From positions 1-59,239 of the IMG/VR virus record IMGVR_UViG_3300034064_000298: a stretch of 59,239 nucleotides of DNA; one strand, 5' to 3'. Source of the stretch: a virus (Duplodnaviria; Caudoviricetes). Position 1 is the first letter of the stretch. Each line of letters begins with the position of its first letter. Below, piece after piece: positions 5,892 through 57,772 of the stretch. The notes under the pieces were generated by a model. The model was not told where the DNA came from and searched no databases. It saw only the letters and a program-made list of their open reading frames with translations. A program made the position numbers and the translations under genes.

Positions 5892-6206
5892 TTATAGGTA
5901 GTTCATGATTTCTGAGTTATAGCGCTGAGTTGTCTCAGCATCGAAACTCCAGTTTCTCCAGCTGAACTCTGCCAATGTCAGTCTTTTGACTCTTTTCGTT
6001 TCGTATTTTGGTCGAATGGTGACGCGTTTCTCAGTTATCTGAACGATCTCGCCAGTGTATGCTAGGTTGAAAGAATCGTAGATCGCTGTGTCGCCAATCT
6101 CAAACATCGTAGGAGTAGAACCATTTCGGCTTACGCTGATCCACTTTTTAGGCTCAAATTCAACCGTGTATGTCTCGCGACCGTCGCAGATAGTGATATT
6201 GGGCAT
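5892..6206 (-). CDS. Hypothetical early protein
   Basis: 104-aa ORF directly behind a copy of the promoter/RBS repeat. Confidence 0.7.
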   Translation of the reverse strand: MPNITICDGRETYTVEFEPKKWISVSRNGSTPTMFEIGDTAIYDSFNLAYTGEIVQITEKRVTIRPKYETKRVKRLTLAEFSWRNWSFDAETTQRYNSEIMNYL

Positions 6207-6270
6207 TTTCTTTCTCCAGTTGTTTGTCTCTATGGGTGTAGTATAGCAGGTGGCGAAGAGGTGTCAAACT
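6207..6270 (-). repeat. Remote copy of the promoter-leader-RBS cassette repeat
   Basis: tttctttctccagttgtttgtctctatgggtgtagtatagcag matches the copy at 55360; TTGACA(6267-6262)-16 nt-TATACT(6245-6240). Confidence 0.9.
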
Positions 6271-6471
6271 TTATTTTGAAGAATTTACATCCCAAATGTT
6301 TGGGACTTCCTTGAACTTGCGACCGGAGCGATCAATATTCATTCCTTTTGGTAGTAACCGTAGTTCATTGTTTGCCACGTAGGCATATATTTTAGTTTTG
6401 GAGTCCTCGAAAATATAGATGTGGTTTGGAGTGCTACCAGGCCATTGTGTTATTTCTTGGAGTGCGATCAT
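6271..6471 (-). CDS. Hypothetical protein
   Basis: 66-aa ORF, ATGA overlap with upstream ORF. Confidence 0.6.
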   Translation of the reverse strand: MIALQEITQWPGSTPNHIYIFEDSKTKIYAYVANNELRLLPKGMNIDRSGRKFKEVPNIWDVNSSK

Positions 6472-13281: not shown

Positions 13282-13305
13282 TTACACCGTAGGTTTACGT
13301 GGATA

Positions 13306-13602: not shown

Positions 13603-13627
13603 TATTACTCCTTGGTTGATATTTTAT

Positions 13628-13666: not shown

Positions 13667-13675
13667 TGGTTTTAG

Positions 13676-22871: not shown

Positions 22872-23062
22872 TTTTGTGCCTCAATTTTTGAGTAGTTGGT
22901 ACATTCAGGATGATCTTTCGTGATTTCAGAAGTGCATTGCCATTCTGTATCGCGCAGTGTTATCGTGCTTTCATTCCGAGCACCTGAAACTCCTACCCAT
23001 ACAATCAAGTATAGCAATGCAAGTATAACATTTACTTTGGTGAGTTTAGAGAGTTTATCCAT
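22868..23062 (-). CDS. Small membrane-anchored protein
   Basis: N-terminal hydrophobic helix, W.C...C. Confidence 0.5.
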   Translation of the reverse strand: MDKLSKLTKVNVILALLYLIVWVGVSGARNESTITLRDTEWQCTSEITKDHPECTNYSKIEAQN

Positions 23063-40959: not shown

Positions 40960-41938
40960 GTTTCATCCTCATAAGTTCGATTTTTATTTTACTGGTGTGA
41001 GCTGCTTCCATGATGGCAAGCAACGCACCAAGACGTCCGTATGTTCTGACAGCATCCGCAACGTCTTTGATACCATGATCCCACTGTGGAATACTCACCG
41101 CCCACCCCATTTCGATTGCGCGGCTGATCATGGTTTGGCCCGAGATATCTTGGTCAGGCACTACTATTATATCTCGTCTCAGTGAATTTATCAAGTTGGA
41201 TTGTTCATCATTGACCGTGTTGTGCAACACCGCGAGGCCATTGATTGCAAGGGCGTCGAACACTCCTTCAACCACGATCGCTGATGTCCACTCCGGCATT
41301 TGCAAATCTGCGCCGAATACATATCCAGGTTGAATATCATGAATATATTTTCGTTTTTTGTTGTCCAAGTATCGAGAAGAATGTCCAACGATTCTATTAT
41401 TATGCGTGAATGGTATAACTATTCGATTACCATCTCTAGCGTATTCTCCATTGCCTGTGCCTACCATAAATGGATAACAAGATGGATCAATAGCTCTATC
41501 TTTCAAGTATTTGACAAACTTTTCGTGCGCTGGGTTATTTTGATCAAGTAACTCAGTCTCGTCGGGTAGTTCCTTGCTCTCGAACCTGATCTTACGAGTA
41601 GGCCCAAGGTGCTGTTTGTGTTCCTCTATGATGCCATAAATGCTTTTGTGTCTTAGGCTTTCGAGATTGATATATTCTATCATCGTCTCGTCCACGCCAA
41701 GCCATTCTAGCAGACGTCGTGATTTGAGTGATAGGATTTTCCCTTGAGAGAATCCAGTGACGTATCCGCAGTTGAAGCAGTGCCACTTCCATGAACCGTC
41801 TGTGTCGACTTTTAGTCCACCTCTGCCTCGCTTGTCCGGAGTTTCGCCCATGTGAACACAGCATGGTGCATTCAAAGCCCACCAGCCAGAAGGTGTAGAC
41901 TTCTTTTTGTGTGTTATCAAAGTTAGTATATCAATCAT
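40937..41938 (-). CDS. DNA primase (Zn ribbon plus TOPRIM)
   Basis: APCC..HCFNCG, RIVIPF, VEGVFDA, PDQD, KDVADA; promoter at 41945-41973. Confidence 0.9.
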   Translation of the reverse strand: MIDILTLITHKKKSTPSGWWALNAPCCVHMGETPDKRGRGGLKVDTDGSWKWHCFNCGYVTGFSQGKILSLKSRRLLEWLGVDETMIEYINLESLRHKSIYGIIEEHKQHLGPTRKIRFESKELPDETELLDQNNPAHEKFVKYLKDRAIDPSCYPFMVGTGNGEYARDGNRIVIPFTHNNRIVGHSSRYLDNKKRKYIHDIQPGYVFGADLQMPEWTSAIVVEGVFDALAINGLAVLHNTVNDEQSNLINSLRRDIIVVPDQDISGQTMISRAIEMGWAVSIPQWDHGIKDVADAVRTYGRLGALLAIMEAAHTSKIKIELMRMKLDQRIRN

Positions 41939-41969
41939 GCGTCCATGATAACATGATTTTCAAGGGTTG

Positions 41970-43159: not shown

Positions 43160-43540
43160 ATGAACAACTTAATATTCACCAAATTAGCCGAAAGGTATCC
43201 ATTTATTACATTATGTATCTATGCTTCCGAGGAGTATGTAGGCATAATACAGAACAAGGATGACACCATTACGTCGATGTATGACTTTGGTAGCATAATT
43301 GATATTGAGTTGAAACGACGTTTTATTGAATTAGCTAATATATGGTGGTGGGAAAGTAATCGTTCGATTCCAATCAATATATTCCTGAAAAGAGACTGGG
43401 AAGTATTTCGCCCATATATGAAAACATTTACCAACAAAGATCTGAATATTATTCATGGACCAGTATGCAGTCTAAGTGATCTGGCCAAACTCAGGTCCAA
43501 ACGGCGTAGTATAACTCTCGTCAAGCGTATTGACCAGTAG
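43160..43540 (+). CDS. Conserved hypothetical protein (start MNNLIF)
   Basis: WWWESNRSIPINIFL; GATAAATA at 43145-43152. Confidence 0.65.
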   Translation: MNNLIFTKLAERYPFITLCIYASEEYVGIIQNKDDTITSMYDFGSIIDIELKRRFIELANIWWWESNRSIPINIFLKRDWEVFRPYMKTFTNKDLNIIHGPVCSLSDLAKLRSKRRSITLVKRIDQ

Positions 43541-44089
43541 ATTCATGTGAATTTTTGCCAACATGGCGTAACTGATCGCATGCGACTTTCTGAATACAAA
43601 TCCCTTACTGTCATCTCCGTCCCACACTGACTCAAACACCGTAGGCCAAGGCATATTTTGCAGATGCGCCTTCCCTGGTCTAATGATCGAAATTATTGCT
43701 GCCAATCTTGGAATGGAGTCTGGCTTCATTCTTGACAACAGGTCGGGCCTACCACCTATATGAACAATTTGACTTGCCCATTCAGAGTCATTCCATAGTC
43801 GTTCCCATGGTGGCTCAGTTGTGAGCAGTTGTTCGTAGTGATCTTGATCGCGTATCATGGCATAGACGGACATGTTCAACAGATCGATCTTAAAATAGCC
43901 TCGCCTCTCTGCCTCCTCGTAGTCTATTGCTGCACACTTCAGAATAGGATCATACGGGATCTCGGTAGCATATATTCCACTGTTGTGTAATCTAGGTTTT
44001 CCCATGTGACTTTGTCTGGCCGACGTGTGGCGGATCAACCTCAGTAGTTGATTTCTGTCACCAATGTCGATGTCAATATCAGCACTCAT
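43472..44089 (-). CDS. Minimal DNA polymerase III alpha (DnaE, family C) catalytic core
   Basis: DIDID, HNSGIY, FKIDLL, IRPG, FRKSHAISYA. Confidence 0.75.
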   Translation of the reverse strand: MSADIDIDIGDRNQLLRLIRHTSARQSHMGKPRLHNSGIYATEIPYDPILKCAAIDYEEAERRGYFKIDLLNMSVYAMIRDQDHYEQLLTTEPPWERLWNDSEWASQIVHIGGRPDLLSRMKPDSIPRLAAIISIIRPGKAHLQNMPWPTVFESVWDGDDSKGFVFRKSHAISYAMLAKIHMNLLVNTLDESYTTPFGPEFGQIT

Positions 44090-44773
44090 TTACCACCCCG
44101 CTTGGCGTAATATATCTTGGGCATATTCTTGATCTTCTGGACGATTGAGCATGATTTTCTGCCAGTACATCGTGTCGATATACGGCCAGATCATTGCTAT
44201 CTGATCGCTGGTTAGTTCCGATAGAAACTTCTGTCCACTGTCACTGGAATATAGCACCCATGGACTTAGACGCCCAGCAACGATCGCGTGAAGATTTGCG
44301 TTCACGTTTCCATACCGTAGAACATCCTTTGCAGGATGTTCGGTTTTTTCTTGCCAAGTTATCGAATACTCCACGGCTCGACTCAGTGCGTCGCTTACGT
44401 CCTCGACACGAAGGTAGTCGATCAAGAAAGCGGTATAGGATGTGTCCTTGCACCAGTGATCGATTTTCTTGTTGTTCTTCAGAAGGTATTCCACGAATCT
44501 CATAGGATTGATAATCTTCGTGTTCACGCTGTATATACCGAACTTGACAAATGCCAAGTAGTATGGACTATTGATGAAATCCATAATCGTTCTCGGTTTG
44601 TGATTGCCAGCAGATATTTCATAGAACTTCAAGAACGCGTAGAAACCTAGCCTTACACCTGGATCATCTTTGGCTAGAAATCTACGTTTCTTCTCGCATG
44701 AATGCGACAATAAGGACGATGGTCTCTTGAACTCTTTCTTGCAATATTCGCAAGTCATGTCCTCCGTTGTCAT
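44090..44773 (-). CDS. Zinc-finger protein in replication block (start MTTEDM)
   Basis: CEYC...F.....L..H.C. Confidence 0.6.
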   Translation of the reverse strand: MTTEDMTCEYCKKEFKRPSSLLSHSCEKKRRFLAKDDPGVRLGFYAFLKFYEISAGNHKPRTIMDFINSPYYLAFVKFGIYSVNTKIINPMRFVEYLLKNNKKIDHWCKDTSYTAFLIDYLRVEDVSDALSRAVEYSITWQEKTEHPAKDVLRYGNVNANLHAIVAGRLSPWVLYSSDSGQKFLSELTSDQIAMIWPYIDTMYWQKIMLNRPEDQEYAQDILRQAGW

Positions 44774-44780
44774 GTGTGTC

Positions 44781-44951
44781 TCAGTGAGTAGTTGAATATT
44801 TAACATTCACGGTATTTGGACGTTCAACGTCTGTTGCTTTGCAATCTTGAATTACACCACCATTCGCTAGGAACACTTCCATCTCTTTCTTGATCTGGTC
44901 GGAGTGGCGTTCCTTGAATGTCTTGTTTTCGTCTTTCTTTTTTTCGATCAT
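44781..44951 (-). CDS. SutA-like small RNA polymerase-binding protein (not in ORF track), 56 aa
   Basis: MIEKKKDENKTFKERHSDQIKKEMEVFLANGGVIQDC...; GGAGA RBS. Confidence 0.55.
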   Translation of the reverse strand: MIEKKKDENKTFKERHSDQIKKEMEVFLANGGVIQDCKATDVERPNTVNVKYSTTH

Positions 44952-44975
44952 ACGTTGTCTCCATTGTGTAGTTGA

Positions 44976-46004: not shown

Positions 46005-47465
46005 TTAATTTTTCCATTCTAGCTTTTCTTGTGTAAAAGGATACCGAGCATCTTTGTAGAATGCTTTCCTTTTTGAAAGATGGCGTTTGGCAAACTTACA
46101 GCTGGACGTAATATCCCAGATATTGACGAAATCCTTGTCCTCAGCTTTGCGAATACCTCTACCAATACTCTGAATAACTCTCACAAAGCTCTTGCCAGGT
46201 TCAATGAGTACAAGGTTAAATATTCTAGGTATATTGATGCCTACCGCTGCCACGCCATACGTTGCTATAATGATCTTGTCGTCACTAGTAGCGACATCGT
46301 CGTACTCGGTTTGCCTGTCCGATGCTTTGGTGCTACCAGAAACGAAAACTGATCCATCTAGCTGTGTCACTAGAGCTTTACCAGGCGCGACACGATCAAC
46401 CAATACCAGAGTATTTCCAGTCTTGGCGATTTCGCTGATAACTTTAGCCATAGTTTCCAAACGCTCCTTGTTCTCAAGTAGGAACTTCAGCTCCTTCTGA
46501 TAATCCTTGAACTCTACGTGGTCAACCAGTTGAATAATGTTGACGTGACATTGTGCCAACACTCCCTTGTCCTGCAACTCGGCAGCAGATAGATGGCTGA
46601 TCACTGGACCTAGACTTACAGTCAATGCTATTCGGTTGAAGTCTTCCTTTGGTACAGTTCCAGTTAGGCCCCACCGAATAGGAATTTCACCCATAACTCC
46701 AGTGAGTAGTTGCTTCAGCGCAGATGCCTTCGCTTGGTGAGCCTCGTCTATCATGACGCAAACAACGCCCTCGATGAACTCTTGGATAGTTATCGCTGCT
46801 TCTCCATCTCTGGTGTTTTTGAAAAGTTCATTCAGGCTTTGCCATGTGCTTATGGTATGGGTTTTGCCGAACTCTTTTCGATCACCATAGTACACGCCTA
46901 CGTCCAGGCCGAGGTTGATATAGTCCTTTTCGGTCTGCGTTACTAGACTCTTGTTGGGAACTACCACGATGGTCCTGCCGTGTGCTTCGCACCGTTGGCT
47001 TAGGGTAGCCGTGATGAGAGTTTTGCCTGCACCTGTTGCAACCTCCTGAATGCTCTGTGTGTTAGTTAGGAAGTTGTTTACCGTTTCTACCTGGTAGTCT
47101 CGTAGCTTGATTGCCACCCCTTCATTCGGATGACCTTTTGGCCATGTTTTATGTGAGAAGGTATCCTCGGTCACAGGCTCGAAGTTGAACGCGGTATTGT
47201 ATTCTCTGACGTCAACCAAGTCGATATCGTAGCCCTTGTTGGACACTATAGGCAGTATCTCTTCCAAGAGGTTCACATAGGTCGAACCTCCCATCTGAAA
47301 GTAGTTGGTTGAACCATCCCAGCGTCCAAGACGGACACTGGTACAGTATTTCAGTGCGGGATCGATGAATTTGAACTTCTTGGTGAGTATCTTCCTGGTA
47401 TCAAGATCCAACCCCTCAAATTTGCAATTCACCTCATCCTTGACGATCAGTGTACATTGTTTCAT
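46005..47465 (-). CDS. uvsW: UvsW-like superfamily 2 helicase
   Basis: LRDYQ, ATGAGKT, DEAH, GLTGT, GINIP, QSIGRGIR. Confidence 0.9.
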   Translation of the reverse strand: MKQCTLIVKDEVNCKFEGLDLDTRKILTKKFKFIDPALKYCTSVRLGRWDGSTNYFQMGGSTYVNLLEEILPIVSNKGYDIDLVDVREYNTAFNFEPVTEDTFSHKTWPKGHPNEGVAIKLRDYQVETVNNFLTNTQSIQEVATGAGKTLITATLSQRCEAHGRTIVVVPNKSLVTQTEKDYINLGLDVGVYYGDRKEFGKTHTISTWQSLNELFKNTRDGEAAITIQEFIEGVVCVMIDEAHQAKASALKQLLTGVMGEIPIRWGLTGTVPKEDFNRIALTVSLGPVISHLSAAELQDKGVLAQCHVNIIQLVDHVEFKDYQKELKFLLENKERLETMAKVISEIAKTGNTLVLVDRVAPGKALVTQLDGSVFVSGSTKASDRQTEYDDVATSDDKIIIATYGVAAVGINIPRIFNLVLIEPGKSFVRVIQSIGRGIRKAEDKDFVNIWDITSSCKFAKRHLSKRKAFYKDARYPFTQEKLEWKN

Positions 47466-47786: not shown

Positions 47787-48791
47787 TTACGCTGCTCCCA
47801 TCATGCAAGTCATCTTAGCAATGCTGCGCCACTTCTTGGCATTCACCTTAGTAAGGTCGGCAATTTTCAGTGCCATGCGAATCGACATCTCGTTGAGCTT
47901 GTTGCGGTTCTCATCCATGAAGTCGATGATCTCCTCTTCCTGCTCTGGTTCGAGGTTATAGCCTTGGAAGAGGGCGCCTGTCTTATATATCTGCTTTACG
48001 CGAAGGAACTTGTCGCGCATGCTGTTCATTGTCAGGTCAAGGTAGTGGCACCGGCTACCAAGGGCGGCCAAATGGTCTTGGAGCTTCTTGCTCTTGATGT
48101 TGTTGAAGTCAAGGTTAGTGATGAAGATGATGGAAGCCTTGAAGTCGTAGGAGTCAGGAATGTCTTCACGGCGAAGCATGTGGCTGTCGGAGTTCCAGTG
48201 AATCCTACGCTTCTTGCCGGAGTCAAGGGCTGCTTTTAGGATGTTCAAGGACAACTCGTCGTTGAATACGCTATCGCAGTCGTCGAAAACCAATACGTTA
48301 CCAGGTTCGCTGAACTTGTAGAGTTTAGCGTATAGTCCGATCGGGCTGATCGCTCCCTTTACGATGTCATACTTCAGTGGGCGATTCGCTATCACATCAA
48401 ACAAGGATGCTTTTTCCAGCTGTTGCTCTACGCCGTAGCTCTTACCTACACCAGGAGGTCCAACTACGATCATGGAGCGAATGTTGCCCATGATCGCTGC
48501 GTCTGTCATGTCTTCGAGAATCTCGAAGCGTTCGCTGATGCGCTCCATGATCTCGTCGTCGGTTTCGCGCTGAACCGGTTCAACTGGTACTTCTGAAATT
48601 TCGTAGTCGTGGTGGCTGTTGACTCTGATTCGAATATTGTTTCCAGCCTTATCGCCGAATTCTTCGGTTGCCCGGACAGTAATGTAGGCGCCTTTTGCAC
48701 CTTCCTTGTATCCTTTTACCAAAGCAAAGGTCTTGTTGCTGATTGGGTTATTGAGGTAGCTGCCGCTCTTGATGGTAACCGTAGAATTCAT
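47787..48791 (-). CDS. AAA-family ATPase
   Basis: GPPGVGKS, VLVFDDCD, IFITN, ALGSR; promoter at 48826-48854. Confidence 0.85.
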   Translation of the reverse strand: MNSTVTIKSGSYLNNPISNKTFALVKGYKEGAKGAYITVRATEEFGDKAGNNIRIRVNSHHDYEISEVPVEPVQRETDDEIMERISERFEILEDMTDAAIMGNIRSMIVVGPPGVGKSYGVEQQLEKASLFDVIANRPLKYDIVKGAISPIGLYAKLYKFSEPGNVLVFDDCDSVFNDELSLNILKAALDSGKKRRIHWNSDSHMLRREDIPDSYDFKASIIFITNLDFNNIKSKKLQDHLAALGSRCHYLDLTMNSMRDKFLRVKQIYKTGALFQGYNLEPEQEEEIIDFMDENRNKLNEMSIRMALKIADLTKVNAKKWRSIAKMTCMMGAA

Positions 48792-48856
48792 GTCGTCTCT
48801 CTCCGTTTGTTTACGTTATGGGAGTAGTATAGCGTCGTTGACCAGAGGTGTCAACT

Positions 48857-49108
48857 TTAATTTGAAAGAAGTGCGACCATGAGGAACCCCTCTAGGTTCT
48901 CCATCATCTCGGAAAGCTCTCTGGTCATTTTCTGGTAGTTGCCGGTGATATTGCCTCGTTGGCGACACCTTACACTCTCTTTGCTCATCTCGGTGAGCTT
49001 CAGGTCGACGGTAGCTATCATCTTCATCAGATCTCGCCTTGCCACTGGATTCTTGATTCCTCTAGCTTGCTGTTGGATATTGTCCAGCTTTTTGCGTTCT
49101 TCAAACAT
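48857..49108 (-). CDS. Hypothetical helical protein
   Basis: 83-aa ORF. Confidence 0.6.
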   Translation of the reverse strand: MFEERKKLDNIQQQARGIKNPVARRDLMKMIATVDLKLTEMSKESVRCRQRGNITGNYQKMTRELSEMMENLEGFLMVALLSN

Positions 49109-49126: not shown

Positions 49127-49354
49127 TTATGACCAGCGCAGCAGAAAGGTAGCCAAGTCTTTTCTTGTAAGGTAGAATACGGAGCCCATGTAGGTGTGAG
49201 GTATTCCACTGCTGAACAGCCAGTCTCGTATCTTACTGATTGTGTCTTTTTCACATTCGAGTACCTCGACTCTGTGAGAGTAGGGATACCTCCCACTCGT
49301 TCTGTATCCTAGGTCAGTTATACTGAGTTTCATGTGGCTACTCATCGCTGTCAC
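49127..49354 (-). CDS. Hypothetical protein
   Basis: C-terminal F.LRWS motif common in large-phage small proteins. Confidence 0.55.
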   Translation of the reverse strand: MTAMSSHMKLSITDLGYRTSGRYPYSHRVEVLECEKDTISKIRDWLFSSGIPHTYMGSVFYLTRKDLATFLLRWS

Positions 49355-49517
49355 CTATCACAATGCCTGGAGTGCAGGTTAGCTTCTTCAAATCTTTGTT
49401 GTGCTGCTCTTTGAGAGCGATCAAATTCAACATCTGCTTGCACTCTTTCTCGGTGCTGAACTCACGGGCAAGAACGTCAGGGGTAGATACAAGATACATT
49501 GCCAAAATCCAACTCAT
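49338..49517 (-). CDS. Cassette gene (not in ORF track), 59 aa
   Basis: MSWILAMYLVSTPDVLAREFSTEKECKQMLNLIALKEQHNKDLKKLTCTPGIVIGDSDE, directly behind a repeat copy. Confidence 0.7.
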   Translation of the reverse strand: MSWILAMYLVSTPDVLAREFSTEKECKQMLNLIALKEQHNKDLKKLTCTPGIVIGDSDE

Positions 49518-49560
49518 CTTCTTTCTCCTGTTGTTTGTGTCTATGGGTGTAGTATAGCAG

Positions 49561-50223
49561 TTATTGCGAAACAGTCAACCTTTTATTGAACTCTTCTTCG
49601 GTCATTCGAACTCCTTTCACGTACCATTGTTTATCGCCGTTTGTGAATTCAACAGCAGGCCCATCCTCTCGGTGTATTTCGCCGTTTATGGCCCACAATT
49701 TGCCATGTTTAGCTTCCATGGCAGGTCCATCTTCTCGATGCTGTTTGCCGTTTACCCAATACTCTTTGTGTCCATCAGGATACTCGACGGCAGGTCCATC
49801 TACACGATGACGTTTGTCATTTAGGTACCACTTTTTGGCGCCATCTGCTTCCTCCATAGCAGGTCCATCTACGCGATGAAGTTTGCCGTTTTGATACCAC
49901 TCGTTTGTACCCCAAGAATATTCGATAGCAGGTCCATCTACGCGATGAAGTTTGCCGTTTCGATACCACTCCTTGGTGCCATCTGCATCCTCCATAGCAG
50001 GTCCATCTATCCTGTGAAGTTTGCCGTTTCGATACCAAAACTTGCTGCCATCTGCCCATTCAATCGCAGGTCCATCTACTCGATGAAGTTTGCCGTTTAG
50101 CCGCCACTCTTTGCAGCCATCTGCGTATACAACAGCTGGGCCATCTTCGTTGTGAAGTTTGCCATTGAGGCGCCACTCTGATCTTCCAGCTGTTTCTGAT
50201 ATGGTATATTCGGACATCGTCAT
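49561..50223 (-). CDS. HREDGPA-repeat protein, 8 repeats
   Basis: 23-aa repeat H(R)(E/V)DGPA.E..DG.K.W..NGK; tail MTEEEFNKRLTVSQ. Confidence 0.9.
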   Translation of the reverse strand: MTMSEYTISETAGRSEWRLNGKLHNEDGPAVVYADGCKEWRLNGKLHRVDGPAIEWADGSKFWYRNGKLHRIDGPAMEDADGTKEWYRNGKLHRVDGPAIEYSWGTNEWYQNGKLHRVDGPAMEEADGAKKWYLNDKRHRVDGPAVEYPDGHKEYWVNGKQHREDGPAMEAKHGKLWAINGEIHREDGPAVEFTNGDKQWYVKGVRMTEEEFNKRLTVSQ

Positions 50224-50265
50224 TCTCCAAGATGTTTTGTGTCTATGGGTGTAGTATAGCAGTTA

Positions 50266-50808
50266 TCAAGGAACAGTCAACCTTTTGTTGAACTCTTCTT
50301 CAGTCATTTGAACTCCGTTCACATACCACTTTTTATCGCCGTTTGCATACTCAACAGCTGGTCCATCTACTCGGTGTCGTTTGCCATTTACCCAATACTC
50401 TTTGTTGCCATAGGACTCCCATCCTACTTTGCCTGGTGGAACTTCGATAGCTGGGCCATCTTCTCTATGACATTTGCCATCCACAAACCAAATTTTGGTG
50501 CCATCTGCAAGATCGAAAGCTGGTCCATCTACTCGGTGATATTTGCCATTTACCCAATACTCTTTGGTGCCATCAAGACGCTCAAACGATGGTCCGTCCA
50601 CGCGATGACGTTCTCCATTCAACCACCATTCTGTGGTGCCATCTGCACCTTCGACTGCAGGGCCGTCTTCTCTGTGACGTTTGTCATTTACCCACCATTC
50701 CTTTCTGCCATCTGCCCACACCAAGGCTGGTCCGTCTTCTCGATGTCGTTTGCCATTGAAAAGCCACTCCGTCATTGTATCAGTTTCTTTTTTGGTATAT
50801 CCGATCAT
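50266..50808 (-). CDS. HREDGPA-repeat protein, 6 repeats (start MIGYTK)
   Basis: Same repeat, one unit carrying an 8-aa insertion; tail EEEFNKRLTVP. Confidence 0.9.
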   Translation of the reverse strand: MIGYTKKETDTMTEWLFNGKRHREDGPALVWADGRKEWWVNDKRHREDGPAVEGADGTTEWWLNGERHRVDGPSFERLDGTKEYWVNGKYHRVDGPAFDLADGTKIWFVDGKCHREDGPAIEVPPGKVGWESYGNKEYWVNGKRHRVDGPAVEYANGDKKWYVNGVQMTEEEFNKRLTVP

Positions 50809-50852
50809 CGCCAATCTCCTAGCTGTTTGCGTTTATGGCAGTATAGCAGTCA

Positions 50853-51167
50853 TCAAGGAACAGTCAACCTTTTATTGAACTCTTCTTCAGTCATTTGAAC
50901 TCCGTTAACGTACCATTCCTTTCTGCCATCGGCCCAATCGATCGCAGGTCCATCCTCTCTGTGAGGTCTGCCGTTTACCCACCATGATTTAGAGCCATCT
51001 GCGTATTCAGCCGCAGGTCCATCTTCTCGATGTTGTTTGCCGTTCATGAACCAATACTTACTGCCATCAGCCCATTCAATCGCAGGTCCATCTTCTCTGC
51101 CTAGTTTACCGTTTAGATACCAAAACTTGGTGCCAGCTATTTCTTGCATATATGCAGTCATCATCAT
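50853..51167 (-). CDS. HREDGPA-repeat protein, 3 repeats
   Basis: Same repeat; tail EEEFNKRLTVP. Confidence 0.9.
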   Translation of the reverse strand: MMMTAYMQEIAGTKFWYLNGKLGREDGPAIEWADGSKYWFMNGKQHREDGPAAEYADGSKSWWVNGRPHREDGPAIDWADGRKEWYVNGVQMTEEEFNKRLTVP

Positions 51168-51225
51168 TCTCCTGTTGCTTTACGACTATGGGTGTAGTGA
51201 AGCAGTCATCAAGGAACAGTCAACC

Positions 51226-51390
51226 TTATTTTACTTCTCTGGTTGAACCGATTTCCCAATCCTCGACCTTGTACATTGCCTTCATGAGTTGCCTTGCTCT
51301 GACCATATCCGGTGCAGATACTGTGACGTCGATTCTCCCTACGTAATTGGATGTTTTTATGGTTACGGGTGCGGTCCATTGTTTGTTCAT
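51226..51390 (-). CDS. Cassette gene (not in ORF track), 54 aa
   Basis: MNKQWTAPVTIKTSNYVGRIDVTVSAPDMVRARQLMKAMYKVEDWEIGSTREVK. Confidence 0.6.
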   Translation of the reverse strand: MNKQWTAPVTIKTSNYVGRIDVTVSAPDMVRARQLMKAMYKVEDWEIGSTREVK

Positions 51391-51403
51391 GTGCTTTCTC
51401 TGT

Positions 51404-51730
51404 TTAGATGATTTTTACTTTGTATCCGAGCATCTTCTCGATCTCGGCTAGAGTTAGCTCAACTGGTTCTGATGTTACTGCCTTTAGATTCTGCTGAAGA
51501 ACGCTCTTGGCGAGTCGAAAAGGTAAGGAGAAGTCAGTCTCGCTGTGAATAGGCGGCGTTACGTTCACCCATTCTTTATCATACTCCGAGAATCTCTGTA
51601 GCTTTTTCGTTGCCTCATCCCACTGCAGTTTGGTTCCTTGTTTGAACGTGATTTTCCAGCAACCCGCTGATATTGCAAATGAATTGGTTACGACGTAATC
51701 ACCTGAGGTGGGAAAGGTACGAGTAGTCAT
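51404..51730 (-). CDS. Cassette gene, hypothetical
   Basis: 108 aa; C-terminal ELTLAEIEKMLGYKVKII; partial repeat upstream. Confidence 0.7.
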   Translation of the reverse strand: MTTRTFPTSGDYVVTNSFAISAGCWKITFKQGTKLQWDEATKKLQRFSEYDKEWVNVTPPIHSETDFSLPFRLAKSVLQQNLKAVTSEPVELTLAEIEKMLGYKVKII

Positions 51731-51770
51731 TGTTTTCTCCTAGCTGTTTGTGTCTATGATGTCGTCTAGC

Positions 51771-51998
51771 TTAGTATGCCAACACCTCAACTACCTGTGT
51801 CAGGTATGCCCAATGAGAATCCTTTGTGCCGATATCGATGTAGTCGATGCCAGGCTGGCCGTTTTTGATGTTGCTGTCGGTATAGGTTACCTTAGCTTGT
51901 CTTGCGATACCGTTGCCAAAGTTGCCGCGTACCATCACGAGACTGCCTTCGCGGATGTCCTTGAGTCCTACTGCTTTGGTTTTCTTGAAGGTCATCAT
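51771..51998 (-). CDS. Cassette gene, hypothetical (possible SH3-like fold)
   Basis: 75 aa directly behind a repeat copy. Confidence 0.7.
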   Translation of the reverse strand: MMTFKKTKAVGLKDIREGSLVMVRGNFGNGIARQAKVTYTDSNIKNGQPGIDYIDIGTKDSHWAYLTQVVEVLAY

Positions 51999-52065
51999 CT
52001 TCTTTCTCCAGTTGTTTGTCTCTATGGGTGTAGTATAGCAGTTATTGAGAAAGTGTCAACTCTTT

Positions 52066-52335
52066 TTAGTCCCATACGCGATGTTTTTCAGCAACCCATT
52101 CCCTACCATCGTAGTCTTCTATCTGCCATTCAACGTCGTCTGGTACTTCCACGATCTTCAAAGAGGCAAATTGACCACCAGCCACTAGCCCTAGTTCCTC
52201 TACAATCTGAACCAGATATGGATCAGCTCTATCATGATGACGATCTACGTTTTTACCTGTCAATTCAAAGTATCTTTTAGTAGCTTGTTTGGATAATCCA
52301 AATCCACCATACTGAGCGTTGATTACTATTTTCAT
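52066..52335 (-). CDS. Cassette gene, conserved phage hypothetical
   Basis: MKIVIN..YGGFGLS...EWVAEKHRVW; paralog of the C-terminal domain of 16844-17371. Confidence 0.8.
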   Translation of the reverse strand: MKIVINAQYGGFGLSKQATKRYFELTGKNVDRHHDRADPYLVQIVEELGLVAGGQFASLKIVEVPDDVEWQIEDYDGREWVAEKHRVWD

Positions 52336-52403
52336 TCTTCTTTCTCCAGTTGTTTGTCTCTATGGGTGTAGTATAGCAGTTATTGAGAAAGTGTCAACCT
52401 TTT

Positions 52404-52865
52404 TTACCAGCTAGATCGATAAGTGACTGTCCAGTTCCAGCCTATATCCTCCCCTAGGTCTTCTAGGAACGATCTAAGCTCTTGTTTCGTGAGTTCAAGA
52501 TCTGCCCAATACCCTTCCGTCATTTCGGAGGAGCCAAAAAAGAATCCCTCGCATGGTGGCAACAACTCGGCGGCCAGCTCCTTTGAGCCTCCTATCTTTT
52601 CTAGGGTACGAAGTAGATCATCCAAATGTTCCAAGGTCACCTCGTATGCCCTACAGTCATCTACGCCATTCTGTACGTTCTTGACAAACCAGTTATGAAT
52701 GGCATTTGCCTTGCGCCAATACATTACTTGATACTCTAGACCTGTCAGCTGCATGCCATACCGAGTGTTTTCCGTGAGTTCCGCTATTTTCTCAATCAAC
52801 TCCTGGTCTTTGGAATTTAGGCTGCTGAGGTATTTGCGAGCGTGAAGATACATATCAAGGCCCAT
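52404..52865 (-). CDS. Cassette gene, conserved phage hypothetical
   Basis: MGLDMYL, YWRKANAIHNWF, LP..EGFFFGS, Y.SSW. Confidence 0.8.
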   Translation of the reverse strand: MGLDMYLHARKYLSSLNSKDQELIEKIAELTENTRYGMQLTGLEYQVMYWRKANAIHNWFVKNVQNGVDDCRAYEVTLEHLDDLLRTLEKIGGSKELAAELLPPCEGFFFGSSEMTEGYWADLELTKQELRSFLEDLGEDIGWNWTVTYRSSW

Positions 52866-52902
52866 TTTCTTTCTCCTGTTTATTTGAGGTATAGTGTAGC
52901 AG

Positions 52903-53085
52903 TTATTGAGGAAGTGTCAACCTTTTATTGAACTCTTCTTCGGTTATTTGTTCTCCGTTTACCCACCACTCTTTGGTGCCATCAGATCGCTCAACCGCCG
53001 GGCCTGTCGTGTGATGAAGTTTGCTATCTCGATACCGCTCTATAGTGCCATCAGGATAGATGTTTATGGAATGTCCACTCGCCAT
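52903..53085 (-). CDS. HREDGPA-family protein, 1 repeat
   Basis: HHTTGPAVERSDGTKEWWVNG; tail ITEEEFNKRLTLPQ. Confidence 0.8.
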   Translation of the reverse strand: MASGHSINIYPDGTIERYRDSKLHHTTGPAVERSDGTKEWWVNGEQITEEEFNKRLTLPQ

Positions 53086-53094
53086 ATTACTCTC

Positions 53095-53310
53095 CTACTC
53101 GGCAGTCGGCGAGAGAACTTGAACTAATGAATCGTCGTACCACCCTTCAAAGGTGTAGTAGTTGAATGATGCGACCAGATTGCCTTTGGCAAAACCTAGC
53201 CAGCCATTGATGCGACCGTTACTGTCGTCAAACAACTCTTCATGATCGAAGGTGTCGTCGTCGAACATATCAAAGAAGTCGTCTTCATCATTGTATATTT
53301 CAGTAATCAT
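53095..53310 (-). CDS. Cassette gene, very acidic small protein
   Basis: 71 aa, D/E/F-rich N-terminus. Confidence 0.65.
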   Translation of the reverse strand: MITEIYNDEDDFFDMFDDDTFDHEELFDDSNGRINGWLGFAKGNLVASFNYYTFEGWYDDSLVQVLSPTAE

Positions 53311-53353
53311 TGGTGTTCTCCAGCTGTTTGCGTCTATGGGTGTAGTGTAGCAG

Positions 53354-53656
53354 TTATCGAGAAAGTGTCAATTCTTCTTCGGTTATTTCAACTCCGTTTA
53401 TATACCAGTACTTGGTGCCATCTGCATATTCCATGGCAGGCCCATCTACGCGATGAATTTTTCCGTTTACCCACCACTCTTTGTATCCATCCTCCCATTC
53501 AACCGCAGGCCCATCTTCTCTGTGCAGTTTGCCGTGTCTATACCAATACTTACTGCCATCTGCATATTCAATCGCAGGTCCATCTTCACGATGAAGTTTG
53601 TCGTCTAGGTACCAAAACTTGTCGCCGTTTATTTCTTTGGTAGTATATCCGGTCAT
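53354..53656 (-). CDS. HREDGPA-repeat protein, 3 repeats
   Basis: Head MTGYTTKEINGDKFWYLD; tail EEELTLSR. Confidence 0.9.
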   Translation of the reverse strand: MTGYTTKEINGDKFWYLDDKLHREDGPAIEYADGSKYWYRHGKLHREDGPAVEWEDGYKEWWVNGKIHRVDGPAMEYADGTKYWYINGVEITEEELTLSR

Positions 53657-53699
53657 CTTCTTTCTCCAGCTGTTTGCGTCTATGGGTGTAGTATAGCAG

Positions 53700-54083
53700 T
53701 TATTGAGAAAGTGTCAACCTTTTATTGAATTCTTCTTCGGTTATTTGTTCTCCATTTATCCACCACTCTTTGTTGCCATCTGCGTATTCGACGGCCGGTC
53801 CATCCTCTCGTTGGATCTCACCGTTTATATACCAGAATTTGGTGCCATCATAGATTTCAATCGCAGGTCCGTCCTCACAATGTACTAGGCCGTTTAGATA
53901 CCAAAATTTGGTGCCATTGGGGTATTCAATAGCAGGTCCATCCACTCGATGTCGTTTGCCGTTTATATACCAATACTTGTTGCCATCTGCCCATTCGATC
54001 GCAGGTCCATCCTCTCGATGGAGTTCGCCATCAAGGCGCCACTCTGTTTTATACTCGTCTGTAGATATAGTATATCCGGTCAT
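53700..54083 (-). CDS. HREDGPA-repeat protein, 4 repeats
   Basis: Head MTGYTISTDEYKTEWRLDGEL; tail EEEFNKRLTLSQ. Confidence 0.9.
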   Translation of the reverse strand: MTGYTISTDEYKTEWRLDGELHREDGPAIEWADGNKYWYINGKRHRVDGPAIEYPNGTKFWYLNGLVHCEDGPAIEIYDGTKFWYINGEIQREDGPAVEYADGNKEWWINGEQITEEEFNKRLTLSQ

Positions 54084-54126
54084 CTTCTTTCTCCAGCTGT
54101 TTGCGTCTATGGGTGTAGTATAGCAG

Positions 54127-54441
54127 TTATTGAGAAAGTGTCAACCTTTTGTCGAACTTTTCTTTGGTCATTTGTTTTCCGTCTATGAACCACTTCTTGG
54201 TGCCATTTGCTCGTATGACCGCAGGTCCATCTACCCTGTGAGGTTTGCCGTCTATATACCACTCTTTGGTGCCATCTGCAGCTTCAAACGCAGGTCCATC
54301 TACTCTGTTAAGTTTGCCGTTTCTATACCACCTCTTGGTGCCACTTGCAAGTTCAACCGCTGGGCCGTCTTCTCTGTTAAATTTGCCGTCTAGGTACCAA
54401 AACTTGTCGCCGTTTATTTCTTTGATAGTATATCCGGTCAT
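54127..54441 (-). CDS. HREDGPA-repeat protein, 3 repeats
   Basis: Head MTGYTIKEINGDKFWYLD; tail KFDKRLTLSQ. Confidence 0.9.
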   Translation of the reverse strand: MTGYTIKEINGDKFWYLDGKFNREDGPAVELASGTKRWYRNGKLNRVDGPAFEAADGTKEWYIDGKPHRVDGPAVIRANGTKKWFIDGKQMTKEKFDKRLTLSQ

Positions 54442-54484
54442 CTTCTTTCTCCAGTTGTTTGCGTCTATGGGTGTAGTATAGCAG

Positions 54485-55144
54485 TTATTGAGGAAGTGTC
54501 AACCTTTTGCTGAACTCTTCCTCAGTTATTTCAACTCCGTTTAACCACCATTCTGTGGTGCCATCTGCCCATTCGATCGCAGGTCCATCCTCTCTGTTAA
54601 GTTTGCCGTTTCTATACCACCTCTTGGTGCCATCTGCCCATTCAGATGCAGGTCCATCTTCTCTGTGTTTTAAGCCGTTTACCCACCATTCTTTGGAGCC
54701 ATCTGCGTATTCAGCCGCAGGTCCATCTTCTCTGTGTTCTTTGCCGTTTACCCACCATTCTTTGGAGCCATCTGCCCATTCAACAGCAGGTCCATCTTCT
54801 CGGTGTCGTTTGTCGTCTATATGCCAAAACTTGCTGCCATTTGCCCATTCGACCGCAGGTCCATCTTCTCTGCCTAGTTTACCGTTTAGATACCAAAACT
54901 TGGTGCCATCTGCCCATTCGACCGCAGGTCCATCTACTCTGTGTCGTTTGCCATTTAGATACCAAAACTTGCTGCCATCTGCCCATTCAGATGCAGGTCC
55001 ATCTTCTCTGTGTTTTAAGCCGTTTACCCACCAATACTTGTTGCCATCTGCCCATTCGATCGCAGGTCCATCCTCTCGATGGAGTTCGCCATCAAGGCGC
55101 CACTCTGTTTTATAGTCGTCTGTAGTTATGGTATATCCGGTCAT
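54485..55144 (-). CDS. HREDGPA-repeat protein, 8 repeats (start MTGYTIT)
   Basis: GGAGAAAGAAG RBS before the ATG at 55144; tail EEEFSKRLTLPQ. Confidence 0.9.
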   Translation of the reverse strand: MTGYTITTDDYKTEWRLDGELHREDGPAIEWADGNKYWWVNGLKHREDGPASEWADGSKFWYLNGKRHRVDGPAVEWADGTKFWYLNGKLGREDGPAVEWANGSKFWHIDDKRHREDGPAVEWADGSKEWWVNGKEHREDGPAAEYADGSKEWWVNGLKHREDGPASEWADGTKRWYRNGKLNREDGPAIEWADGTTEWWLNGVEITEEEFSKRLTLPQ

Positions 55145-55164
55145 CTTCTTTCTCCGCTTATGTC

Positions 55165-55359
55165 TTAGAATTTTTCGGTAGCAGGAGCGCCAACTGCATG
55201 TTTCATGCCATAGGTGTACCACTCTTTGTAGCCATCGGCTTGTGCTGTCGAGGTGTCTTCAGCCCATTCGGTAGCAGGTTCAATATCAGTGTAGGGGTTA
55301 GGTCCGTAGCCTGCAATTTCATACTCGTCGATTTCGTAGGTAGTGATTGCTGCTTTCAT
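55165..55359 (-). CDS. Cassette gene with degenerate repeat remnant
   Basis: PATEWAE...ADGYKEWY..G.KH...APA. Confidence 0.55.
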   Translation of the reverse strand: MKAAITTYEIDEYEIAGYGPNPYTDIEPATEWAEDTSTAQADGYKEWYTYGMKHAVGAPATEKF

Positions 55360-55425
55360 TTTCTTTCTCCAGTTGTTTGTCTCTATGGGTGTAGTATAGC
55401 AGATGTTGAAGGAGTGTCAACCTTT

Positions 55426-56136
55426 TTAGCGCCAATTTTCAAAAATAATTTGATCATTGATCTGATGTGGCTTAGGCTCGCCGTGGCAAATGATGACGGA
55501 TGTGTCGTTCACGTTTGGAGCAGCGTTGACGTCTCTATAACTCTTCAGTGCGAAGTCGTATCCACCTTGTACCACTTCCCAGCGCCAGGACTTCACTCCA
55601 CCTTCAAAAAATCGTCGACTACTAGTAGGTATAACGTCCGATAAGTAATCCTGATCTCCCTTATACATTCCGGTAATAGTAGGTAAATGGCATTTAGAGA
55701 ATCTCTTCCATATATGATGATATACAGTAGTGTCCCACCACATCATACTCGAGTTGATACCCATGAAGTTAGGTCGCCATAATGCTTTGAAGTCCTTTAT
55801 AGCCCATAAGCAATGAGTAGGTAATTGCCAAACCCAATCAATACTATCGGTTATAACGACATCGAGATCAAAGTATAATAATGGGCCTGAGTAATGCTCG
55901 GAGTTGAATAACTGCATCTTATACCACCAGGCATACTTATCTTGAATCCCATTCCAGGGTATCAGCGAGTGTTTTACCATATACTCAGGTACATCTCTAG
56001 ATTCTTCGGTATATACATGGAATACTACCGGCACAGTTAGGTTTCTACTTACCATATTGTACAGTTTATCCACATATTCCCAGGAATACCCATTCCCATG
56101 TATTACGCAAGCTATGTTTATATTGTAATCATCCAT
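55426..56136 (-). CDS. Glycosyltransferase (GT-A fold, GT8-like; start MDDYNI)
   Basis: WWYKMQLF, YFDLD, NSSMM.W, GDQD, HGEPKP. Confidence 0.8.
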   Translation of the reverse strand: MDDYNINIACVIHGNGYSWEYVDKLYNMVSRNLTVPVVFHVYTEESRDVPEYMVKHSLIPWNGIQDKYAWWYKMQLFNSEHYSGPLLYFDLDVVITDSIDWVWQLPTHCLWAIKDFKALWRPNFMGINSSMMWWDTTVYHHIWKRFSKCHLPTITGMYKGDQDYLSDVIPTSSRRFFEGGVKSWRWEVVQGGYDFALKSYRDVNAAPNVNDTSVIICHGEPKPHQINDQIIFENWR

Positions 56137-56163
56137 GCTGTTATTTAGCCGATAAATACCCAC

Positions 56164-56871
56164 ATGAATACCGATATAATCCCTATCTTCATAGGTTATG
56201 ACCAAAGAGAGTCAATTGCCTATCATACTTGCTGCAATTCTATCATTAGAAACTCTAGCCAACCAGTAACTATAATACCATTGGCGCTGAATCTATTCAG
56301 TAACTTCTATAATGAAACCCATATCGACGGTAGTAACCAATTCATTTATTCTAGATTCCTGGTACCTTATCTGATGGGTTTTAAGGGCCACGCCTTGTTC
56401 ATTGACGGTGACATGATAGTAAAGGGCGATGTTGCCGAGTTATGGGCTATGCGAAGTCACATGTGCGACGTTCAGGTAGTCAAACACGAATACGAAACAC
56501 GGATGCCTGTCAAGTACTTGGGCGCTAAAAATGAGAACTACCCCAGGAAAAACTGGTCGAGCGTGATTATTTGGAATTGTGGAAGCCACCCAAACAGAAA
56601 ACTCACACCGGAGTTCATTGAGAAGTCAAGTGGTGCCGAACTGCATAGGTTCACTTGGATAGAAGATGAAAGACTGGGTGAGTTGCCAAAGGAATGGAAC
56701 TGGCTTGATCTTGAATACGACGCAAACCCTCAGGCGAAACTCATTCACTACACGTTGGGAATACCTGCGTTCGCTGAGTTTGCCACCGGTGGAATGGCCG
56801 ATGAATGGCACAAAGAAAGAGAGTTTGCTAACTACCCTAAAGCCAATTATGAATATATCAGTATACCATAA
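56164..56871 (+). CDS. Glycosyltransferase (GT8-like)
   Basis: IFIGYD.RE, SRFLVP, FIDGDM, RKNWSS, LP.EWN, IHYTLG. Confidence 0.82.
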   Translation: MNTDIIPIFIGYDQRESIAYHTCCNSIIRNSSQPVTIIPLALNLFSNFYNETHIDGSNQFIYSRFLVPYLMGFKGHALFIDGDMIVKGDVAELWAMRSHMCDVQVVKHEYETRMPVKYLGAKNENYPRKNWSSVIIWNCGSHPNRKLTPEFIEKSSGAELHRFTWIEDERLGELPKEWNWLDLEYDANPQAKLIHYTLGIPAFAEFATGGMADEWHKEREFANYPKANYEYISIP

Positions 56872-57772
56872 GTCAATACCTAACTCTAAAAACAGAGAGA
56901 AAATAGACCTATTGAGATACTTCTCCGATGGGGCCAAGGTACTCAAAGAATCAGTAACGGACGTCCATTCTTATTCTTATAACCCAACTGACGTTGCAGT
57001 ATTACAAGGATGGATATCCGATAAGGTAACTAGGCCCCATTTGGCGTTGCGAAACCAGGTTATTGAAGGTCAGTTGAAGTCTGGGAATCATGTAGTAGTG
57101 GTAGATAGTAACCTATTCTTATACGCCAATACCAATAACCCATTGCATTACCTGAGATATAGTTTCGACGGTGTATTCCCAACTACTGGCAATTACTGCG
57201 ATCAAGAGAATGTGTCGAATACTAGGTGGGAACAGGTATTCAATAACATTGGTATATCATTGAAGTCGGATAGAACCTCGGGTGGTCATATATTGATCTG
57301 CTTGCAGCGCAACGGTGGCTGGTCGATGTCGGGCTGCTCAGTGCTGGAATGGACTGCCAACACTATACTAGAGCTGCGCGAGTACACAGATCGGCCCATC
57401 CGACTTAGGCCGCATCCTGGCGACAAGGCTGCTAGAGGATACTTGGGCGATTTTGAAACGAGTGATCTACTGGCAGGCGTAACCCTCAGTGAGGTAGGGT
57501 CGAGCCTGGTCGACGATTTGCAAGATTGTTGGGCAGCCATAGGCCACAACTCTAGTCCGACTGTGGGCGCAGCCATCGAAGGTATTCCTATCTTTCTCAC
57601 TGATCCCGAACGTAGCCAGTCGCGTGAAGTAGCCAACACTGACCTTAGCCTGATAGAGACTCCGACGTTTTATGACCGAGTACCGTGGGTTGCCAGGTTG
57701 GCGATGAGTCACTGGAACTTCGAAGAACTGAAGAACGGCATGTGTTGGGCTCACATGCGAAAGTTCATTTGA
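56849..57772 (+). CDS. Capsular-polysaccharide-type GT-B-like protein (start MNISVY)
   Basis: ILICLQ, R.RPHP, NSSP.V.A.I.GIP. Confidence 0.65.
   Translation: MNISVYHKSIPNSKNREKIDLLRYFSDGAKVLKESVTDVHSYSYNPTDVAVLQGWISDKVTRPHLALRNQVIEGQLKSGNHVVVVDSNLFLYANTNNPLHYLRYSFDGVFPTTGNYCDQENVSNTRWEQVFNNIGISLKSDRTSGGHILICLQRNGGWSMSGCSVLEWTANTILELREYTDRPIRLRPHPGDKAARGYLGDFETSDLLAGVTLSEVGSSLVDDLQDCWAAIGHNSSPTVGAAIEGIPIFLTDPERSQSREVANTDLSLIETPTFYDRVPWVARLAMSHWNFEELKNGMCWAHMRKFI

Follow-up and report, generated by a model that had tools for sequence, protein, structure and literature searches.

A repeated promoter-leader unit precedes small genes in a variable slot of an uncultured freshwater jumbo phage

We analysed a stretch of phage DNA of 59,239 bp (the window, which is the complete, linear IMG/VR record IMGVR_UViG_3300034064_000298), in which an array of sixteen small minus-strand genes, G1 to G16, is bordered by a glycosyltransferase gene and a gene of family phrog_1250. 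A near-identical unit of ~70 bp, predicted to hold a promoter, a leader and a Shine-Dalgarno (SD) sequence, is repeated through this array. Eight of the genes encode repeat proteins with a predicted MORN fold and the other eight are unrelated to them. The explanation that we favour, with a probability of about 0.6, is that the array is a hyperplastic early-gene region whose self-expressing cassettes are exchanged at the units, in a manner similar to the promoter-early stem-loops (PeSLs) of T4-type phages but without the stem-loop. Each small gene or gene pair would carry one standard expression unit, formed by an A-tract, an extended -10 promoter, a leader, GGAG and the start codon. Host RNA polymerase would fire all units together right after infection, starting ~7 nt past TATACT, and because the cassettes have no terminators between them, transcription would continue into the downstream replication genes. 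General homologous recombination between the ~70-bp units, which comparison of relatives partly bears out, would delete, insert, duplicate and swap whole cassettes, since these units are the only homology between otherwise unrelated neighbours. Such exchange would have inflated the slot between the two border genes from <2 kb to 6.6 kb, and the MORN paralogs would multiply additionally by tandem duplication and unequal exchange within their 69-bp repeats.

The whole window was searched for the pattern TTGAC-N14-TGCTANACT with at most 2 mismatches. This gave 15 matches, 12 of which are on the minus strand at 49551-55420, one at 6240-6267 on the same strand, and two are unrelated matches with 2 mismatches; 100 dinucleotide shuffles gave 1.64 matches on average and always fewer than 15. 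When at most 1 mismatch was allowed, the whole record held 13 matches on the reverse strand, none on the forward strand and none for the backwards control. A profile built from these 13 copies and scanned with nhmmer added a diverged copy before the phrog_1250 gene and a leader-only half copy, and a second half copy, consisting of the SD and first codons before the 219-aa gene, was seen in the sequence (Table 1). Each unit runs in the order A-tract (AAAAGG), TTGACA or TTGACT, a spacer of 16 nt with TGC at its end, TATACT, ACACCCATAGAGACAAACAACTGGAGAAAGAAG (leader and GGAG) and ATG; the -10 box is TACACT at 53371 and 52920 and TTCACT at 51223. In every copy the ATG lies 27–34 nt past the -10 box and opens an open reading frame (ORF) of 59–220 aa, and units in the array are 338–943 bp apart from start to start. 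The 13 copies match the sigma70 consensus at 10–11 of the 12 hexamer positions, and TG precedes the -10 box in 12 of 12 array copies as well as in the thirteenth. Judged by these features, the unit is a complete, near-consensus predicted sigma70 extended -10 promoter with a leader and a strong SD. Twelve of the 13 full copies are concentrated in the 6.6-kb slot, where the glycosyltransferase stop codon abuts unit 1. An earlier sequence-only reading of this DNA had described twelve near-identical direct repeats and two half copies, each before an ATG and ~340–920 bp apart, with two TACACT and one TTCACT variants, and had read them as complete promoter-leader-SD units; pattern, profile and sequence agree with this description, and its count of eight repeat-protein paralogs mixed with about eight unrelated small genes was also borne out (8 + 8).

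The units are interlocked with the genes before them. After non-MORN genes the preceding TAA lies inside the A-tract of the unit, and MORN genes end within the spacer, so that their last residues (KRLTLSQ or KRLTVP, followed by the stop codon) are coded by the -35 box and spacer of the next unit. The leader is A/C-rich, ~27–33 nt long and predicted to be unstructured; all eight units that were folded formed no better hairpin than their shuffles (z from -0.5 to +1.1). No terminator-like site was found between cassettes on the minus strand of 47.5–57 kb, the sole such site being inside G6, and an Rfam scan of 47–57 kb gave no match at E <= 0.1. We also considered an anti-SD pairing, in which the pyrimidine-rich spacer, present in read-through RNA only, would pair with the purine-rich SD. 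This was not supported, as duplex energies for 25 distinct units averaged -8.0 kcal/mol compared with -6.7 kcal/mol for shuffled spacers, and the median fraction of shuffles that were as good was 0.29.

Between non-MORN cassettes, homology is confined to the unit: the units are 82% identical on average, compared with 55% for their 120-nt flanks, which is the level of unrelated sequence (flanks of MORN genes reach 69–70%). The spacer is variable among 24 distinct copies (0.93 bits per position), but at least 80% conservation is seen for both ACACCCATAGA and the leader CAAAC, thus the leader is constrained or homogenised and not merely recently copied. Conservation of the -35, TG, -10 and leader with a drifting spacer is what functional constraint predicts, and suits an alternative explanation, namely that the array is an expression architecture only, in which selection keeps promoters and leader alike, the slot turns over by illegitimate recombination and the units have no special part. 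We regard this as improbable, though less so than the other alternatives below, because spacer subfamilies are clustered by position (TGTTCCTTGAT at 49.5–51.2 kb and CTTTCTCAATAAC at 52.0–54.5 kb) and leaders are more similar inside one genome than orthologous leaders are to each other, which argues for exchange between copies.

The slot itself is conserved in position and variable in content. We fetched 114 loci with the glycosyltransferase and phrog_1250 proteins, and in all 22 loci that hold both genes these are neighbours on the same strand. Slot length varies tenfold among relatives: the gap is 613–2025 bp with 0–4 promoter matches in the 22 loci, versus 6634 bp with 12 units and the diverged one in the window. 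The phrog_1250 orthologs that follow the slot in relatives show 51–54% identity. In the clade L196–L211 the slot reads GT-P-c0-P-(nothing / c6 54 aa / c15 86 aa / c35 128 aa)-P-c3-P-phrog_1250, where GT is the glycosyltransferase gene, P a promoter unit and c a cassette gene, and two further layouts occur in L198 and L212. The additional cassette of L202 lies between two units that are identical over 55 nt, so the indel can be placed only as ‘inside the unit’; this is the signature described for PeSLs (PMC2839356). That indel ends in relatives fall within such 55-nt identical units speaks against turnover to which the units are irrelevant. Moreover, L211 has in its first three units a common leader that is distinct from the leader of the other genomes, and these units are 77–81% alike mutually compared with 69–73% to their L209 orthologs, suggesting within-genome homogenisation (concerted evolution). 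None of the small cargo genes of these distant relatives is present in the slot of the window. PA5oct has a phrog_1250 homolog preceded by four small genes and no glycosyltransferase gene, thus conservation of the slot does not reach that phage. Separately, a homolog of c0, the first cassette after the glycosyltransferase in relatives, is found at 41755-41967 (minus strand, 41–54% identity) of the related IMG/VR fragment G002, where it has no unit, which suggests relocation of a cassette gene.

In the lineage of the window, three mosaic joints fall within the unit or its first codons, and these too are not expected if units merely drive expression. Contig L112 equals 43810-44967 of another related fragment, G001 (97.7%), up to codon 9–11 of a gene and then equals window 54507-52997 (98.7%); it passes from the G001 secreted-protein gene through a promoter with the G001-type spacer, the leader and 9–11 codons, and then through G3, G4 and G5 of the window into G6. 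Either true recombination or a chimeric assembly may have produced this contig. The G001 gene that follows the same promoter is non-MORN, yet starts with MTGYTTKEI (its first 9 codons) like G5 of the window. The third joint is between G2 and G4, which are 97% identical over the first 105 nt, from the SD through codon 35, with the promoter present only at G4. The sequence-only reading had expected recombination breakpoints in the repeat when relatives are compared; such breakpoints are clear in the distant clade with its own unit, and in this lineage they are limited to L112, which may be chimeric, and the internal joints.

The sequence-only reading had named an assembly artefact as a way in which its own account could fail; the array, or its order, would then come from mis-assembly of short reads through the repeats. 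In favour of this, the Logan contigs (k=31) of four lake runs from 2020 and 2024 end without exception at the promoter units, and in L112 an alternative join was assembled at least once. The joints listed for these runs have sides of 20–56 nt within MORN repeats or units, with mostly unknown letters between them. However, three independent contigs are colinear with the window across six units: L108 matches 49186-50250 at 99.8% and L105 matches 54946-56906 at 99.0%, each across one unit, and four units are covered by positions 1-1511 of L112, which are 98.7% identical to 52997-54507. An assembly artefact alone therefore does not account for the array. All unique pieces have single-copy-like depth in the four runs, with values near those of the flanks (e.g. 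16.7–20.9 in run X1; lower, 4.2–7.9, in X4), and related fragments and distant relatives show a like architecture. Hence an artefact is very unlikely.

Several observations weigh against cassette exchange at the units. A clean series of cassette presence and absence is seen only in distant relatives (glycosyltransferase identity 43–53%), which have their own version of the unit, and six of the 14 slot-spanning loci have the same layout with identical offsets from the glycosyltransferase stop codon, so they may be one phage sampled repeatedly. The one alternative junction of this lineage is the single short contig L112, with ~47 nt common to both parents, and neither its junction nor the G2-G3 junction of the window has a second assembly. 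In the four lake runs the unique cassette pieces match at 97–100% (0–5 differences; 0 in X1–X3), and their depths give no sign of copy-number heterogeneity, the contigs breaking at the units; array content is thus stable in this population, across four years, as would also be expected of an expression architecture alone. Conservation of the unit could be explained by selection for expression, and promoters, start site and early timing are predictions made from sequence only.

The repeat of the eight MORN paralogs (G2–G5, G7 and G13–G15) has 23 residues, W-x-NGK-x-HRxDGPA-x-E-x-x-DG-x-K, with a DNA period of 69 bp, and the proteins have a common C-terminal helix TEEEFNKRL. The Pfam family DUF6745 scored above cut-off in four of the eight, and MORN_2 above its gathering score in none of the eight (best 19.8 versus 29.6 bits, in one protein). 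The AlphaFold2 (AF2) model of G15 has a pLDDT of 96.7, and its best Foldseek matches are MORN1 (6t69/6t68, E 3e-8) and junctophilin, down to E 3e-5, and on this modelling the eight repeat proteins are of predicted MORN fold. Like MORN1 (6t68/6t69), junctophilins (7rw4/7rxe) and MORN4 (6jle), they are predicted to form an elongated sheet of beta-hairpin repeats with a 23-residue period, but they show only 16–19% sequence identity to these proteins and are small and stand-alone, with the C-terminal helix mentioned above.

This family raises another alternative, in which the array is a MORN gene accordion that grows by tandem duplication and unequal crossing-over in the 69-bp repeats, carrying the promoter along, and in which the non-MORN genes are incidental. 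The number of repeats varies from ~2 to 9 per gene, the N-terminal modules alternate (G2~G4 97%, G3~G5 84%) in a way that suggests a two-gene duplication, and the family has >7269 homologs in metagenomes. Moreover, G001 has ~17 MORN genes head to tail in an 8.5-kb stretch with only 5 units, and G002 has a single MORN gene of 584 aa with 15 repeats. Because of these forms and the variable repeat number, we conclude that the MORN family grows and reshuffles via its own internal repeats and tandem duplication, and that the unit is not required; an explanation by expression alone gains the same support from the ~17 G001 genes expanded with few units. The sequence-only reading saw the device as used mainly to enlarge one repeat-protein family, a view that is thus not supported. 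As an account of the whole array, however, the accordion is unlikely, and more so than expression architecture alone: seven of the 13 units (6 of 12 in the array) stand before non-MORN genes, five of 13 (4 of 12 in the array) come after non-MORN genes with homology limited to the unit, the same unit precedes unrelated genes on other fragments, and relatives without MORN genes in the slot show variation there as well.

Searches of Pfam, PHROGs and NCBIfam gave a function for none of the eight non-MORN genes; six have no secure Pfam or PHROG family and two (G8 and G9) belong to PHROG families of unknown function. Relatives of G8 are encoded on 135 IMG/VR stretches, and its Atlas clusters are viral and unnamed only. 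The family of G9, phrog_16527, occurs both as this free cassette and as the C-terminal part of a larger, 175-aa gene at 16844-17371 (minus strand), 35 kb off, with a further relative at 22861-23025 of G002. Variable phage slots of this type hold host-takeover and counter-defence genes. Similar host-takeover roles may be expected of the cargo here, and the MORN paralogs (eight here and ~17 on G001) are candidate early host-binding proteins. Slots of the glycosyltransferase-phrog_1250 type are good places to mine new functions.

Two reports describe PeSLs in the T4-type phages RB49/phi1, PST/T4 and nt-1/KVP40 (Arbiol et al. 2010, PMC2839356; Comeau et al. 2014, PMC4122927). A PeSL combines a strong early promoter of sigma70-like type with a stem-loop, an A/T tract on the upstream side that contains the stop codon of the gene before, and the SD and start of the gene that follows. 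PeSLs cluster in hyperplastic regions; they mediate insertions, deletions and replacements and give rise to mini-circles (PMC2839356; PMC4122927). The present array is similar in that modules of ~70–100 bp with sigma70-like -35 and -10 boxes are repeated, run from an upstream stop codon in an A/T-rich tract to a downstream SD and start, and are concentrated in a hyperplastic region before small ORFans. PeSL indels and replacements between related phages end in the modules; here such ends are clear in a distant clade with its own unit, whereas in this lineage they are limited to the hybrid contig L112, which may be chimeric, and the internal joints. In contrast, the array units have no stem-loop or terminator and a much more uniform leader, half of the cargo is one repeat-protein family, and the phage is not T4-type but a lake-water jumbo phage, the nearest cultured relatives of which are Phosso, Atu_ph07 and PA5oct (helicase 51–54%). 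Promoter activity and mini-circles of PeSLs were shown by experiment, whereas the array is known from its DNA sequence alone. Hence the array would work like a PeSL system but be a variant rather than a member, because the stem-loop was looked for and not found. The principle of promoter-mediated cassettes, for which the sequence-only reading itself named T4-type phages as a precedent, is already known from these phages (PMC2839356; PMC4122927), and the array is a well-documented example and not a new kind of system. It does extend promoter-mediated modular shuffling beyond T4-type phages, to a freshwater jumbo lineage and to the glycosyltransferase/phrog_1250 relatives, and indicates that a stem-loop is not needed for the cassette pattern. 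A conserved slot that holds from zero to sixteen putatively self-expressing early genes would also be a natural test bed.

The sequence-only reading had called the array integron-like and free of integrase. No integrase or recombinase family was found by comparison of 63 window proteins (16 of the array and 47 others) with PHROGs, in a window that is ~17% of the genome. As in an integron, short, unrelated and exchangeable genes lie head to tail at one locus with a repeated element between them, and in relatives cassettes are present, absent or replaced between units. However, attC-type imperfect hairpins are absent, each cassette has its own predicted promoter instead of a shared Pc, and exchange would occur by general homologous recombination. 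The array is not an integron, and the analogy does not hold at the level of the components. Gene accordions are also known from large DNA viruses, for example the amplification of K3L in poxviruses, and in the MORN and ankyrin multigene families of giant viruses an early promoter is repeated. These resemble the array in that a repeat-protein family is amplified head to tail, each copy with the early promoter of the virus, but here a bacteriophage would use host-type sigma70 promoters, and the paralogs are interleaved with unrelated genes and are old, with 65–83% DNA identity, not recently amplified.

A bolder possibility, which we hold only tentatively and consider doubtful, is that the near-invariant leader (ACACCCATAGAGACAAACAAC...GGAG) is a cis-element, kept alike in all early units of the genome because it is either read by a phage factor, for instance in the processing or coordinated shut-off of early mRNA, or used as a preferred exchange point, and that the slot is an actively cycling capture site that makes circular cassette intermediates and has grown tenfold. 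If so, this would be a hairpin-less, leader-based form of promoter-mediated gene shuffling in jumbo phages far from T4.

Table 1. Positions of units, cargo genes and border genes of the array, with the diverged unit and unit 13
Feature	Position in window	Strand	Evidence
Glycosyltransferase gene, 259 aa, upstream slot border	55426..56205	-	phrog_1962, E 1.1e-17
Unit 1 (TTGACA-16-TATACT, TG present)	55357..55428	-	profile E 3.2e-20
G1, 64 aa, no family	55165..55359	-	Pfam/PHROG scans
Half copy, SD GGAGAAAGAAG and ATG, no promoter, before G2	55142..55160	-	sequence
G2, 219 aa, predicted MORN fold, 8-9 repeats of 23 aa	54485..55144	-	DUF6745 43.8 bits; 69-bp periodicity
Unit 2; -35 and spacer also code the G2 end KRLTLPQ-stop	54439..54513	-	profile E 1.9e-23
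G3, 104 aa, predicted MORN fold	54127..54441	-	translation
Unit 3	54081..54155	-	profile E 7.3e-24
G4, 127 aa, predicted MORN fold	53700..54083	-	DUF6745 30 bits
Unit 4, 100% identical to unit 3 from A-tract to ATG	53654..53728	-	profile E 6.1e-24
G5, 100 aa, predicted MORN fold	53354..53656	-	DUF6745 36.6 bits
Unit 5 (-10 TACACT)	53309..53379	-	pattern and profile
G6, 71 aa, acidic, no family	53095..53310	-	Pfam/PHROG scans
G7, 60 aa, short MORN-like, without own promoter	52903..53085	-	translation
Unit 6 (-10 TACACT, shortened leader)	52863..52931	-	profile E 8.6e-14
G8, 153 aa, widespread phage family of unknown function	52404..52865	-	phrog_7971, E 1.1e-14
Unit 7	52336..52406	-	pattern and profile
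G9, 89 aa, phrog_16527; paralog at 16844-17371	52066..52335	-	PHROG scan
Unit 8	51996..52068	-	pattern and profile
G10, 75 aa, no family	51771..51998	-	Pfam/PHROG scans
Half copy, leader and SD without -35/-10, before G11	51734..51770	-	nhmmer model positions 33-69, E 0.008
G11, 108 aa, no family	51404..51730	-	Pfam/PHROG scans
G12, 54 aa, no family	51226..51390	-	Pfam/PHROG scans
Unit 9 (-10 TTCACT; spacer subfamily TGTTCCTTGAT)	51159..51232	-	pattern and profile
G13, 104 aa, predicted MORN fold	50853..51167	-	Pfam scan, translation
Unit 10	50806..50878	-	pattern and profile
G14, 180 aa, predicted MORN fold	50266..50808	-	Pfam scan, translation
Unit 11	50215..50291	-	pattern and profile
G15, 220 aa, MORN fold (predicted structure)	49561..50223	-	AF2, Foldseek; DUF6745 53.4 bits
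Unit 12	49515..49589	-	pattern and profile
G16, 59 aa, no secure family; marginal phrog_25767 E 0.0068	49338..49517	-	PHROG scan
Diverged unit (TTGACA-17-TATACT, no TG) before phrog_1250 gene	48793..48865	-	nhmmer E 1.8e-7
phrog_1250 gene, 334 aa, downstream slot border	47787..48791	-	E 1.3e-88
Unit 13, before 104-aa gene 5892-6206	6204..6275	-	profile E 3.7e-19

Unit 13 lies 43 kb from the array at the end of the minus-strand block, where it would drive a single 104-aa gene of no known family beside the gene for the prohead protease (6669-7262). Units 13 and 1 have identical leaders.

The window encodes DnaK, Hsp20, both ribonucleotide reductase subunits, DnaB, primase, ligase, helicases, prohead protease and endolysin, and nearly all of these genes are on the minus strand. 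The helicase encoded at 46005-47465 shows 51–54% identity to its counterparts in Sinorhizobium phage Phosso, Agrobacterium phage Atu_ph07 and Pseudomonas phage PA5oct, CheckV gives a completeness of 17%, implying a genome of roughly 345 kb, and all 24 runs listed with the array are lake-water metagenome DNA, with no RNA run among them. Taken together, gene content, helicase relatives, completeness and lake-water runs mark the window as part of an uncultured freshwater jumbo phage, with PA5oct and Atu_ph07 as distant relatives. A megablast search with the array in 50,697 phage records gave no match, and the sole blastn match of the array was a 3% MORN match in Celeribacter phage P12053L. Relatives in IMG/VR reach at most 67% identity for the phrog_1250 protein, 46% for G8 and 53% for the glycosyltransferase, and the unit of the array is present in none of 194 loci. 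The Hsp20 (148 aa, phrog_432) and DnaK/Hsp70 (647 aa) genes lie at 12783-15619 on the minus strand, and the DnaK is 58–71% identical to bacterial DnaK-like sequences and those of huge uncultured phages and ~50% identical to those of Lak phages. A 205-aa ORF at 43472-44089 (minus strand) matches only the DNA-polymerase family phrog_11778 and the C-terminal end of phrog_405; the ORF may represent part of a polymerase gene that is split.

The unit of the array is also present at 11 further distinct sites on the IMG/VR fragments G001, G002 and G004, where it would drive mostly non-MORN small genes (a part of G001 is represented by two strain variants, G003 and G005). These three fragments share with the window only a large repeat protein and the MORN genes, and no other orthologs. 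Their completeness values (15%, 13% and 3%) agree on one genome size, and contigs L105, L108 and L112 (to the window), part of L112 (to G001) and L114 (to G004) match at 97.7–99.8% identity and share one metagenome prefix; the fragments are probably other parts of the same phage type. The window begins with an open-ended ORF of >1815 aa (1-5448, plus strand) with internal repeats and no PHROG family, and a relative of this repeat region is found at 393-4620 of G001 (51% amino-acid identity over 323 residues, with many DNA matches). At 10244-11200 (plus strand) of G001 (L016), and also in G003 and G005, tandem duplicates of a 53-aa gene (MFNVEIYKEVAGFDG...) are present, one with the standard unit and the other with a diverged promoter, and strain variants of this locus are present on three contigs. 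Finally, L111 (~1464-1540) and L113 (~641-717) have TGCTATACT and a ACACCCATAGACACAAACA leader behind a GC stem and T-run, with no -35 box; this stem and T-run resemble an intrinsic terminator, and the two contigs may show a form of the unit, in a relative, that bears a hairpin.

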